24,154 nt of DNA from Myxococcota bacterium (GTDB lineage: Bacteria; Myxococcota; SpSt-1050). This document shows, in pieces, positions 1 to 7,420 of the stretch (positions are counted from its first letter, which is position 1; every line of letters begins with the position of its first letter). The position numbers were made by a program, and so were the translations under genes. The DNA is taken from contig JBMFOP010000050.1 in the NCBI GenBank assembly GCA_049969675.1, positions 1 to 24,154 on the forward strand, read 5' to 3'. The notes beneath the pieces were generated by a model, which was not told where the DNA came from, did not search any database, and worked only from the letters and a program-made list of their open reading frames with translations.

Positions 1-142
1 TTCAGAGAAGAGGCGGAACATAGTAAAATCTGAGGTGATAAAACTGAGGAGCCGCACATCTAAGGGTAAGAAATAGATTTTTATTTTATTCCACCACGAA
101 TTAAGGTTGGCGATATTTACAAAACGACGCAGACCCCCGCAA

Positions 143-155
143 ATACAACAAGTTA
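143..155 (+). other. Second attI-like motif (ATACAACAAGTTA), inverted relative to the site at 504-538
   Basis: Matches the minus-strand ATACAAACAAGTTA at 507-520 except for one A. It lies immediately after the stop codon of the 156-365 pseudogene. Confidence 0.45.
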
Positions 156-365
156 TCACCCCAATCCTTTGCGAATAGAATAAAAAGTCTTGCCAGGATA
201 TTTCTTTTATGCCTCATTGAGTGCTTCCGTTAATGTTCTACCTAAAAAATATTCGCCTGTTTCTGGTTCTATTACACCTTTTTTCTCTCTAAGCGAATGA
301 ATCTTTGCTAAGGTTCTTTTGAGGGTTTTTTAGCCTCTGGTATTTTTATTTTTCATCACCTTCAT
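156..365 (-). pseudogene. Decayed small cassette-type gene (resembles small DUF5678-like proteins)
   Basis: Manual translation from ATG 365: MKVMKNKNTRG*KTLKRTLAKIHSLREKKGVIEPETGEYFLGRTLTEALNEA*KKYPGKTFYSIRKGLG*. In-frame TAA at 330-332 and 207-209. The IEPETGEYFLG..L.EAL..A.KKYP...FY.IR pattern recalls DUF5678-type proteins (family call from memory). Confidence 0.55.
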
Positions 366-366
366 T

Positions 367-480
367 TTAGTTAAGTTGTGCCATTTCCGATAACGTTTTC
401 AGCATATACGACGTTATCGAAGGTAATGTCCAGAAGGGCAAGGGCAATAGCCCAATAGGGAATTTTAGTAAGCGCCACAT
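367..480 (-). pseudogene. Truncated first-cassette ORF (37 aa) running into the attC-like remnant
   Basis: Strong SD AGGAGG (487-492) and ATG 480 directly after GTTAGGC. Translation MWRLLKFPIGLLPLPFWTLPSITSYMLKTLSEMAQLN*. Most of the ORF overlaps repeat or hairpin sequence, suggesting an internal deletion. Confidence 0.35.
381..429 (-). other. attC-like remnant (3' part), ending ...GAAAACGTTATCGGAAATG
   Basis: 9-bp inverted repeat CGATAACGT (388-396)/ACGTTATCG (411-419). Overlapping C-GAA-G hairpin ACGTTATC-GAA-GGTAATGT (411-429). The GTT crossover-like triplet lies about 30 bp upstream of the next cassette ATG. Confidence 0.5.
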
Positions 481-503
481 CTATTACCTCCTAATTTTGT
501 TTC

Positions 504-538
504 GCCTAACTTGTTTGTATCCGAATATGTTTCGGATA
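504..538 (-). other. attI-like recombination site downstream of the integrase
   Basis: Perfect 8-bp inverted repeat TATCCGAA (518-525)/TTCGGATA (531-538), followed on the minus strand by CAAACAA-GTTAGGC (GTTRRRY core, 504-510), then SD and ATG. Confidence 0.55.
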
Positions 539-1274
539 TATCCCTAATTTTGGGGTGATAGCCGAAGCACTTCTGATATCCCGACTCTGGCGGAAGGCCA
601 GCGAGTCCATTTCTTTTGAGACTTTTTGTCATTTATCCTCCACTTTTGTCAAGGTTCAAATTGTCTAAGGGACTTCTTATCTTTCCAATACTTTTGGTGC
701 TCACATGCGTATAAATTTCTGTTGTTTTACTGCTTTTATGCCCAAGTATTTCTTGAATATATCTTAAACCAACTCCACTTTCTAAAAGATGGGTTGCAAA
801 ACTATGTCTTAGACTGTGAACCGATACATCTTTAGTAACATTTGCTTTCTCTTTCGCTTGTTCAAATATTGCCTGCACCGTTCTTGTTGAAATATATCTT
901 CCATCTCTCGCACCCTCAAAAAGCCATCCCCTTGGCTTATATTCATTCCAATATCTTCTCAAAACATTCAAAGCTCTCTCTCTGACAAGAGTGTATATCT
1001 ATCCTTTCTTCCCTTTACATCTTTAATATGGATAAGCATTCTTTTGTCATCAATATCTTCTGATCTCAATTTTACTACTTCACCAACCCTTAACCCAGCA
1101 GAATAAACTAGCATCAGGATTGCTTAATGCTTTAGATTATCCACTGAATTAAGAATTTTTGCAACCTCCTCCAGACTTAAAACAACAGGTAGTTTTTTAT
1201 CTTTTCAGGGTCTTTTGACCTCATAGACAAAATTTTTTTTTAAGCATTGTGCCATAATAAAACTTCGGGGCATT

Positions 1275-1358
1275 TACCCCGTTAGAGATCAATGCACACT
1301 CATGATTATGCCTTCCAGATTCGGCATATTTAAGTTTATTAAGATTTCTAATGGGGTG
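1275..1358. mobile_element. 84-bp MITE-like insertion with terminal inverted repeats, in frame within the integrase
   Basis: ACCCCGTTAGAGAT (1276-1289) and ATTTCTAATGGGGT (1344-1357) are 12/14 inverted repeats. The insert adds 28 aa (HPIRN...SNGV) that split the conserved STLNQxI-NAxKFYY helix. Confidence 0.75.
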
Positions 1359-1773
1359 AATTACCTGATTTAATGTAGAAGTAGCAGATTGTTTTTCTTT
1401 GGCAAGGTAAACCAGGTAGTTCTTTATGTCGTTATCATTTATATCATTGGGGGATTTGCCTCTAAAATTTAGAAGGTCTCTGTTGTAATAGATGTAGCCT
1501 TTGATTGTCCTATAACTGTATTTTCTTGAGAGGATCTCTCTTTTCAGGTCGTCTAAGGGTGTTGCAGATAATTTTTTATCAGAGAATCCCTCATAGCCCA
1601 TCTTTGCCAGAGAAGGGTCTTCCTGAGATTGCTTCGGCCCTTTGATATGCCCAGGATACCTTTTAATGACAGAGGTAGAGGTTTTAACTTGAAGTGCTGG
1701 GTCTATGTGAATTTGTTCGCCATCAAAGGCTTTTAGAATCTTTTCAGGTGTGCCGTTAGTGTCTGAAAAACTC

Positions 1774-1803
1774 CCCGCCTGCAAAGGCGAAGCGGCGGGC
1801 AGG
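1774..1803. repeat. 30-bp GC-rich REP-like palindrome inserted in frame in the integrase
   Basis: CCCGCCTGCAAAGGCGAAGCGGCGGGCAGG, with arms matching 7/9. It is a GC island in AT-rich DNA. Removing 30 nt restores KYWSFS. Confidence 0.65.
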
Positions 1804-1999
1804 TAGTATTTCCCTTCTGAATGCCAGCGTTTTCCTTTGATACTTTTTCTCCTTTCCACAAGTTGAGGATTATATGGAAATATAACTTTGATAAACCTAT
1901 TTCCCTTTCTAACCTGAATCATTTCGTTAATCACAGGTTTAGTTTAATTATATTATTCTTTCAAAATCAAGCAAAATATTCTGGCATAGTATTTCCACC

Positions 2000-5356: not shown

Positions 5357-7420
5357 ATGGATTATTCAAACAGGCGAAAAGATGAGAGAGTAAAATACCC
5401 ACTTTTAATAAGATTTGCCAGTGAAGAAGGCGGAACGAGGAAGGACTTTGCTGTCAATCTATCAAAGGGCGGATGCTTTGTTCATACCCATACACCACCT
5501 GAAGTAGGTAAGACTGTTATATTTGATATACTCAGGAACAATGGGGAGGTGCTCTTTTCTGGCGAGGGTGTCGTGGTATGGAGGAAGACAGAGAAGGATG
5601 ATTCAAAGGAGCACGGCTGTGGTATAAAATTTACAAGGCTCACACCGGATGCCGCGAAGATTGTAGAAGATATAGTAGCACAGGAGATTGAAAAGGGTGG
5701 CGCTATCAAGGAATTCAAAGACGGAAAAGAGATTGAACCAAAGGCCCCAAAGGATATCGGAATAAAAAAATCACGCAAGGTAATAGGAATTGATCTGGGC
5801 ACAACCTTCTCATGTGTCTCCACTGTAATAAACAATAAGGCGATAGTAATTCCATCAAGGCAGGGATACAGGACAGTGCCATCAATAGTGGCAATCAACG
5901 ATAAAGGTAAGTTGCTGGTAGGGAATCCAGCCCGTGAGCAGTTGCTCATTAATCCCAAGAATACTGTATATGGTGCAAAGAGATTAATTGGGAGAAAATA
6001 CAGGTCAAAGATAGTGCAGGAAATAAAGAGCAGATTTGCTTATGAGATTCTGGAAGGGGACAACGAAAATTGTGTAGTAAAAATTGCGGATACCATATTT
6101 ACGCTTGAGGAGATATCATCTTTTATACTCAAAGAGTTGAAGGAGATTGCTGAGACATTTTTTGGGGAAGAGGTTTATCGTGCGGTGGTCACAGTTCCCG
6201 CATATTACAACGAATCTCAAAGACAGGCGGTAAAAGAGGCTGGAAGACTTGCAGGGCTTGAGGTAGAAAGGATACTCAATGAACCGACTGCCGCCGCCAT
6301 TGCATTTGGCTTTTTCAAGGGTATGAAGAAACGGGTGATGGTATATGACCTCGGTGGTGGCACCTTTGATGTCTCAATAATGGATATTCACGATAATGTA
6401 TTTGAGGTCCTCTCTACAGGTGGTGATACATTTCTGGGTGGAGTTGATTTTGACAACAGAATTGTTTCATACATTGTAGAAGAGTTCAAAAAGCAATACG
6501 ATGTTGACCTCTCAGGTGATATAGTGGTTATGCAGAGATTACTATTTGCCGCTGAAAATGCAAAGATAGAGCTTTCAAGTGTACAGGAGAAGGAGATTCA
6601 TATCCCATTTGTCTCACTTATCAATGGAAAGGCAGTTGACATCAGACAGCGGTTGACGAGACAGAAGGTAGAGGAGCTCACCTCTGACCTCGTAGATAGA
6701 ACGATCATCGTCTGTGAAGAGGTCCTGAATGCAAAAAACATAGATATCAGAAGCCTGGATGAGATACTGCTGGTAGGTGGACAGAGCAGGATGCCACTTG
6801 TCAGGAAGAAGATTGTGGAATATCTGCATAAAGAGCCGCATAAAGGGGTGCACCCGGATGAGGCGGTGGGGATTGGGGCGGCAATGCTTGCTGATTCAAT
6901 TCTTAGAAATGAGAATGTCCTGCTAATTGATGTGCTTCCAATGTCAGTTGGAATCTCTCTTGATGGAAAGAAATATCTAAAAGTAATTCCTCGCAACTCC
7001 CAGCTCCCAACAGAGAGGTCAATCACACTTCTCAATCAGAGAGATTTCCAGTCCGAGATGAATCTTGCAATCTATCAGGGTGAATCACCATTTATAGAGG
7101 CAAATGAAATAGTAGGTGAACTATCAATTAAAGACCTCCCGAGGGCACCCAAAGGGAATGTAAGGATTAATGTAAAATTCTCTGTAGACCCTGAATCAAT
7201 CTTCAAGATACAGGCAATTGATTTGAAGAGCGGACAGAGACTCCCTGTCAGCTTTATAAATTATACCAACAGACCGGATCTCATTAAGGTAAAAGTCCCT
7301 GAGACTCAACAAGGTACCTCACCGATAAATATAACCAATGAGATAAATAATCAGAAATCCGGTCTATCACAGAAAAGAGGATTTTGGGGGTGGTTAAAAG
7401 GGCTCTTATCAAAATCCTGA
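5357..7420 (+). CDS. PilZ (TIGR02266-type) domain fused to an Hsp70/DnaK-like chaperone
   Basis: N-terminal RKDER (RxxxR) and NLSKGG (NxSxxG). Hsp70 motifs GIDLGTT, TVPAY, NEPTAAA, YDLGGGTFDVS, LVGGQSRMP and PDEAV, linker VLLIDV, then a beta substrate-binding domain. No helical lid. Confidence 0.93.
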   Translation: MDYSNRRKDERVKYPLLIRFASEEGGTRKDFAVNLSKGGCFVHTHTPPEVGKTVIFDILRNNGEVLFSGEGVVVWRKTEKDDSKEHGCGIKFTRLTPDAAKIVEDIVAQEIEKGGAIKEFKDGKEIEPKAPKDIGIKKSRKVIGIDLGTTFSCVSTVINNKAIVIPSRQGYRTVPSIVAINDKGKLLVGNPAREQLLINPKNTVYGAKRLIGRKYRSKIVQEIKSRFAYEILEGDNENCVVKIADTIFTLEEISSFILKELKEIAETFFGEEVYRAVVTVPAYYNESQRQAVKEAGRLAGLEVERILNEPTAAAIAFGFFKGMKKRVMVYDLGGGTFDVSIMDIHDNVFEVLSTGGDTFLGGVDFDNRIVSYIVEEFKKQYDVDLSGDIVVMQRLLFAAENAKIELSSVQEKEIHIPFVSLINGKAVDIRQRLTRQKVEELTSDLVDRTIIVCEEVLNAKNIDIRSLDEILLVGGQSRMPLVRKKIVEYLHKEPHKGVHPDEAVGIGAAMLADSILRNENVLLIDVLPMSVGISLDGKKYLKVIPRNSQLPTERSITLLNQRDFQSEMNLAIYQGESPFIEANEIVGELSIKDLPRAPKGNVRINVKFSVDPESIFKIQAIDLKSGQRLPVSFINYTNRPDLIKVKVPETQQGTSPINITNEINNQKSGLSQKRGFWGWLKGLLSKS

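Follow-up and report, generated by a model that had tools for sequence, protein, structure and literature searches.

The window is a 24,154-nucleotide stretch of DNA that makes up one contig (C50) of a 3.05-Mb assembly in 188 contigs, with 39% GC and 99.9% completeness. On its minus strand, at 633..1934, lies a pseudogene of an integron-like tyrosine recombinase that lacks the IntI insertion and carries a HARP-like N-terminal domain followed by Phage_int_SAM_4 and Phage_integrase domains. The coding sequence is split over three frames. Relative to intact homologues it contains insertions at about 1802-1770 and 1346-1263, frameshifts in an A run near 1230 and an AG repeat near 975, and in-frame stops at 1207 and 1126. 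Nevertheless, the catalytic R-K-H-R-H-Y motifs survive, and the pieces match PF13495 and PF00589 in Pfam, as do 66 of 66 homologues. A first-pass annotation of this DNA had described IntI-like motifs and a short segment between WLFEG and HSLRH; all four motifs are present on the minus strand, distributed over two frames, and the segment is as short as described. The insertion at 1770-1802 is palindromic and of a 31–33-bp type also found inside attC left arms elsewhere in the genome (C46:11338-11368 and C82:13401-13429). The insertion at 1263-1346 is 84 bp long, in frame, and has inverted ends, and a recombinase copy on C46 carries an insertion with similar ends.

Downstream of the recombinase, at 507..586 on the minus strand, is an attI-like insertion site of two tandem palindromic units (580-557, imperfect, and 538-518) with the crossover triplet GTT at 510-508, delimited by an HMM, by alignment of relatives, and by the divergence of contigs. 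The palindrome plus GTTAGGC reported earlier does exist, as an 8-bp inverted repeat with a 5-nt loop at 538-518, 95 nt past the stop at 633, followed after 7 nt by GTTAGGC at 510; that palindrome is, however, only the second of the two units, and the site is the whole of 586-507. An HMM built from 37 relatives, with the window excluded, scores 586-507 at 53.4 bits (E 5.6e-14 for the whole genome), and the site is beyond chance. The relatives derive from 80 metagenome loci, 71 of which have a locatable gene end; 53 of those are distinct, and 49 have at least 150 nt downstream. A GTT-ending insertion site lies downstream of the recombinase in 43 of these 49 distinct close loci and was not called in the other six. 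The relatives' sites have two, sometimes three, tandem palindromic units, and the genes behind them vary in content, as the first-pass annotation had anticipated. Compared with attI1-type sites, the site here is palindromic and sits downstream of the gene. 5' of GTT, the insertion site carries a motif similar to that of attC right arms. In seven groups of loci the same 45 nt precede GTT and different sequence follows it, and two loci (L113 and L115) have one common first cassette start on different platforms.

Past the crossover triplet stand the remnants of two cassettes on the recombinase strand. Cassette 1 (395..510, minus strand) is reduced to 116 bp; most of its gene and the left arm of its attC have probably been deleted. 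The SD-ATG pair of the first-pass annotation is there (GGAGG at 491-487, ATG at 480), but the 37-codon frame that it opens crosses the attC remnant, has no Pfam match, and makes no recognisable gene. The attC-like site itself (388..454, minus strand) retains its right two-thirds, namely the loop, the L' arm, the spacer, and GTT at 394, and scores 26.1 bits with the hairpin profile model R1 described below. An intact attC in a relative (L122) aligns through its right two-thirds with positions 454-391, at 87.5% identity over 64 nt (E 3.6e-16), and four further relatives (L154, L163, L118, and L123) have sites that match as well. The attC-like hairpin proposed earlier, a 9-bp stem over 421-386 around GTTATCGG at 394, can be drawn, but only the right two-thirds of a longer attC remain, the left arm is gone, and the stem rests on two substitutions in the loop region. 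Compared with intact attC sites, the 9-bp stem with the R' box arises from these two substitutions, which lie within 415-421 and are of a kind that a template-switch mutation might produce. The GTTRRRY consensus that had been invoked does not extend to this junction, where the sequence is GTTATCG.

Cassette 2 (156..394, minus strand) consists of a cassette start and a small broken gene. The second small gene claimed on the same strand can thus be recognised as a reading frame from 365 to 156, but it has two in-frame stops, and a closing attC is absent. Pfam gave nothing useful for this gene, and its best Atlas score was 0.78; it may resemble DUF5678. A promoter scan for a Pc gave six promoter-like matches against 6.1 expected, which is chance level. 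The surviving array ends in a short repeat (112..170, minus strand) that recurs on C138, C36, and C5; a reading of 170-112 as a second attC was rejected, since a right arm is missing and copies of the repeat turn up in unrelated settings. A multi-copy element at the contig end (1..96), common to the ends of C128, C122, C141, and C105, bounds the array. No transposase gene was found in the window between 632 and 1. Farther along the window, at 5357-7420, a PilZ domain is fused to Hsp70.

Short contigs from run X1, which is labelled as a hot-spring metagenome and is possibly the source sample, show this locus in more than one state. One X1 contig is identical to 228-477, base for base. Another has one difference over the 210 bases of 507-716 and then, from GTT, a different cassette. 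In X1 record 5, cassette 2 follows a 16-nt sequence that reads as the right arm of another attC, and two further contigs (X1, X2) diverge from the platform at 505. Both GTT junctions of the window are thus seen as exchange points. It is only this population evidence that the copy at the locus adds.

The N-terminal piece of the pseudogene, used as query, has 276 relatives, with 65 full-length proteins among the 120 matches listed; among the matches listed, the closest named proteins come from Nitrospirota, WOR-3, and Thermodesulfobacteriota. Queries with the C-terminal piece returned mostly distant enzymes, with one contig scan covering 1 of 64 parts. The span from KGxKxR to HxLRH is 65–68 residues in 64 of the 65 full-length homologues (the one exception is a regex artefact), compared with 106–107 residues in seven IntI loci. 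By this measure, the recombinase is one without the ~41-residue IntI insertion, which comprises the I2 helix and lies near patch III. VchIntIA (2A3V) is the best PDB match, and the match of protein P0008 to it splits across the insertion region. The first-pass annotation had set its proposal against an ordinary IntI or XerD, and all six intact homologues fall below the corresponding cut-offs: they score 170–227 bits with TIGR02249 (cut-off 265) and 129–204 bits with the XerC and XerD models (cut-offs 330–335). Five of the six pass the archaeal XerA model NF040815.

In a FastTree phylogeny of 151 recombinase cores, the pseudogene nests in a clade of its own with 51 close relatives (support 0.964). 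The IntI clade (support 0.956), the main Bacteroidota clade, and the IS91-linked clade, which includes 17 insertion-less recombinases that adjoin an IS91 transposase and have no array, are all separate from it. IS91-linked recombinases are the sister group in this tree, whose root is unreliable; as the Xer outgroup is not monophyletic, we claim neither a root nor an order of events. Identities are 54–78% to the close relatives, 34–46% to the IS91-linked enzymes, 32–35% to IntI, and 37–50% (median 44%) to 29 Bacteroidota homologues in their separate clade.

The 70-residue N-terminal domain resembles HARP, a fold that binds branched DNA. Pfam detects the resemblance at E ≤ 0.01 in 19 of 66 homologues, the top Foldseek match is SMARCAL1 HARP (E 0.13, TM 0.56), and the VIA Z values are 6.2 for UvsW, 5.7 for XPB, and 4.7 for HARP. 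With scores this middling, HARP would be a weak call for the identity of the domain. The full-length structure model (pTM 0.49) served for domain calls only. Some site-bearing relatives are without the N-terminal extension (L027, 278 amino acids).

To describe the sites that close the cassettes of relatives, a training set of 14 hairpins, chosen for pairing, was aligned around a 7-bp R stem and an 11-bp L stem. In this set 90% of cells pair, against 26–42% in slid controls, and for 14 of 18 pairs both partners vary, a number that none of 500 shuffles attains. Model R1 took the place of two home-made hairpin finders, whose output was dominated by noise (33 downstream matches versus 14 shuffled). 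R1 detects 81 sites, spread over 59 of the 80 loci, with 79 on the recombinase strand; 70 are downstream of the recombinase, seven upstream, two in loci without a gene end, and two are reverse readings of the same sites. Where at least 3 kb of downstream sequence is available (19 distinct loci), 18 loci have at least one site and 13 at least two. The R''-L''-variable loop-L'-R' hairpin architecture is thus present in relatives, and it recurs elsewhere in this genome; the window holds only a partial site. With the arms fixed, site length ranges from 58 to 157 nt, and for 68 of 70 sites the bottom strand gives the better fold. The attI HMM and R1 were both trained on this clade, and because they are clade-specific the blanks among the distant loci, where R1 gives 13 matches in 84, do not mean absence. 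In a Patescibacteria locus (L060:249-5854), seven R1 matches lie upstream of and divergent from a recombinase fragment, as in a classical integron.

Two properties of these sites bear on how cassettes might move. First, after duplicates, gapped boxes, and non-GTT boxes were dropped, 57 of 69 junctions were kept, and in 38 of these the left box matches its own cassette start at 4/4 positions, whereas a match to the next cassette start occurs in eight; permutation gives a mean of 5.3 and a maximum of 13 in 5000. The own-start count is conservative because R1 was fitted to the opposite pairing. As the left box adjoins its own start only in an excised circle, this complementarity suggests circles with folded sites. 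In the window the signature is unscorable, since cassette 1 is without a matching left box and cassette 2 without a closing attC. Second, among 57 sites outside the training set, the L stem runs unbroken over 6–12 bp in 49, and the surplus bases lie on the L'-R' spacer, a geometry toward which detection leans; the surplus is 4 nt in 32 sites, 3 nt in 14, and 2 nt in three.

The rest of the genome contains further debris of the same kind. Four more recombinase remnants lie on C46, C138, C59, and C37, with an additional piece on C91, and the attI HMM detects one more insertion site in the genome, which follows the remnant on C37. The search for further cassette ends that had been suggested yielded at least five more R1 sites with 150 of 354 candidates scored. 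No intact platform copy was found in this 99.9% complete assembly, and Rfam at gathering thresholds gave no matches in the window or in six loci of the same genome. Among three genomes of the same genus (G001–G003) there was no orthologous array for comparison; two have no platform within ~1.5 kb of the neighbouring membrane-protein gene, and G003 has recombinase pieces elsewhere. On C46 (L001, C46:9000-12000) a second decayed platform carries an HNH-like plus methylase fusion, a PIN-like gene pair, and three attC-like sites. On C37 (L003, C37:27356-27620) the recombinase is cut to its first 40 codons and is followed directly by an intact insertion site, and the first cassette start resembles that of L114. 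On C138 (L002:1582-1752, minus strand) a methylase fragment is inverted upstream of the recombinase remnant, and it begins like the first cassette gene in L113 and L115.

From its sequence, the locus is a decayed integron-like cassette platform whose recombinase lacks the IntI insertion, and the copy here is dead. We consider it likely that the conserved insertion site, the arrays, the replacement of cassettes exactly at GTT, the complementarity of left boxes to their own starts, and the loss of the insertion are best explained by the decayed head of an integron-type cassette array, in which cassettes are exchanged at a GTT shortly after a tyrosine recombinase gene of the same orientation, with the insertion-less recombinase as the probable enzyme. 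That the adjacent recombinase catalyses the exchange is what we infer. The original suggestion of a decayed cassette-capture system run by a different recombinase subfamily is therefore supported, with a conserved site, variable cargo, and homologues below the IntI, XerC, and XerD cut-offs. The platform would be a variant of the integron with putative recombination activity. We do not file it as a canonical integron because, while its working is integron-like, it lacks two defining features, the IntI insertion and the extrahelical bases. By analogy with integrons, cassettes would leave as circles and attC would fold as a single strand, the recombinase would cut both partners, the folded site and the double-stranded insertion site, at GTT, and the resulting junction would be resolved by replication. 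More speculatively, because the L stem is without extrahelical bases, we propose that the one-sided 3–4-nt spacer bulge and the HARP-like domain might set strand choice, replacing the I2 helix.

Alternatively, the same recombinase could act on ordinary double-stranded sites through the L'-spacer-GTT half, with the hairpins serving at the RNA level as terminators or stabilisers. The enzyme is indeed without the I2 region, which in IntI is tied to single-strand recognition in the accessible literature, the insertion site and the attC right arms resemble each other in the motif preceding GTT, and IntI can still recombine double-stranded sites (PMC4792948, in the parts available). However, the left box complements its own start in 38 of 57 junctions, a start to which it is adjacent only in the circle, and the partner with which it would pair in a transcript in only eight of 57; moreover, site length varies over 58–157 nt between fixed arms. 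We therefore regard purely double-stranded exchange as unlikely.

It seems more improbable still that the recombinase is a linked bystander and that a canonical IntI, or the Xer enzymes of the host, mobilise the cassettes in trans. The genome does encode two intact XerC/D-like proteins (on C23 and C105), the available text of PMC4792948 describes XerCD recombining the folded CTX-phi strand without I2, and an assembly in 188 contigs could be missing a gene. Against this, the 99.9% complete assembly has no match to the IntI insertion segment, the site keeps its fixed place after the recombinase gene in 43 of 49 relatives, and the extrahelical bases that IntI reads are missing, the stem being unbroken over at least 6 bp in 49 of 57 sites. 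Least probable of all, and largely refuted, is a dead IS91-linked or Xer-type recombinase beside chance hairpins. The short stem first seen is partly accidental, and both the sister-group position of the IS91-linked recombinases and the passing of the XerA model are in keeping with such an origin, but there is no downstream transposase, and chance accounts poorly for the E values of the site and of the attC homology or for swaps at both GTT junctions.

The reading that we prefer, exchange of cassettes by the insertion-less recombinase, invites comparison with several known systems. With integrons the platform shares SAM_4 and catalytic domains, a GTT crossover, promoterless co-oriented cassettes closed by hairpins of variable length, and a left box that complements the cassette's own start. 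It differs from them in having no IntI insertion, in scoring below the TIGR02249 cut-off (6/6), in forming a separate clade, and in its HARP-like N-terminus; further, its insertion site is downstream and palindromic, and its attC sites have an unbroken L stem and a one-sided 3–4-nt bulge. According to the portions of these papers available to us, canonical attC has two or three extrahelical bases on the left (R''-L'') arm (PMC2727003), and these are read by the integrase (PMC2095811). Likewise, in its accessible text, Cury et al. 2016 (PMC4889954) tied integrons to intI_Cterm, dismissed 21 insertion-less neighbours of attC sites, and reported a group of integrons with an inverted integrase in Treponema.

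The layout corresponds to that outlined for rAID-1 of gut Bacteroidales, which the available descriptions (Ross et al., 10.1101/471110; PMC12247911) present as Bacteroidales-restricted immunity-gene arrays in which a XerD-like recombinase lies 5' of co-directional short genes, a motif follows the recombinase stop codon, and repeated intergenic motifs are called reminiscent of integrons. Compared by description, the two share the co-oriented recombinase-array layout, the post-stop motif, and the repeated intergenic motifs, and the layout is, as far as those texts go, outlined in print as rAID-1 only; it is thus not wholly unreported. Those texts give neither a structure for att sites nor a mechanism. 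Membership of rAID-1 calls for a recombinase more than 44% identical to BF9343_RS08045, at least two co-directional downstream genes, and a downstream GC of 41% or lower. The window's enzyme belongs to a clade apart from the 29 Bacteroidota homologues. Behind its recombinase stand one gene-less remnant and one pseudogene, whereas relatives have arrays. Its 37% GC downstream of the recombinase falls within the limit but is uninformative because the genome itself has 39%.

Smyshlyaev et al. (10.1101/542381), in the text accessible, recognise an Integron-like subgroup of tyrosine recombinases with members that lack the helical insertion, including IS91-associated ones. These are likewise IntI relatives without the insertion, and the IS91-linked ones are the sister group here; the present system differs in having a cassette array, and no transposase, after the gene, and that text does not credit members without the insertion with any cassette function. 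The chemistry that we infer has a precedent in XerCD at CTX-phi: the available part of Escudero et al. 2016 (PMC4792948) describes how enzymes without I2 recombine a folded single strand that is free of extrahelical bases. CTX-phi differs in that it hijacks host enzymes at dif, whereas here a dedicated gene heads its own array. In literature searches that left subscription journals mostly outside their scope, no account was found of att sites or a recombination mechanism in this clade, nor of an activity assay.

If our reading is correct, its consequences extend beyond this genome. The IntI insertion is what defines integrons and what their detection relies on. The joint origin of I2 and extrahelical bases has been called a chicken-and-egg paradox (Escudero et al., PMC4792948, in the part seen), and a cassette system without either would make that paradox testable with natural enzymes. 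It would also supply rAID-1 with a mechanism and imply an uncounted pool of mobile cassettes; a homologue occurs in 48 of 101 sampled genomes of one Bacteroidota order, in part of which sites were scored. As a tentative extension, which we find possible but somewhat short of probable, these platforms could constitute a second widespread class of integron without I2 and extrahelical bases that uses a HARP-like structure-specific DNA-binding domain and a one-sided bulge, represents a pre-I2 form of the integron, has rAID-1 as its gut branch, and includes a flavobacterial branch in which tet(X3) was acquired as a first cassette, the fragment later being brought into Acinetobacter by ISCR2.

Some named loci relate to the last element of this extension. 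Protein P0008 shares 54% identity with the xerD/tnpF gene that precedes plasmid-borne tet(X3) and tet(X5), and the xerD/tnpF genes before tet(X3) and tet(X5) in L190:5043-7230 (FJ012881.1) and L191:4043-6942 (NZ_CP044520.1) are 5'-truncated. Directly before tet(X) stand a 9-bp inverted repeat, 7 nt, and GTT, which is the geometry of the window's site. tet(X3) as a clean single cassette was rejected, as an attC-left-arm-like stretch after it matches the cassette start at one of four variable positions, and with a 3' junction that fits poorly the tet(X) link stays a lead. That this enzyme family and this site geometry lie directly before tet(X3) and tet(X5) may be relevant to the initial capture of the two genes. 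Finally, an intact-looking family member is borne on a Rufibacter plasmid (L193:5626-10773, NZ_CP012644.1) from a cultured host, together with at least six cassettes and clear hairpin sites.
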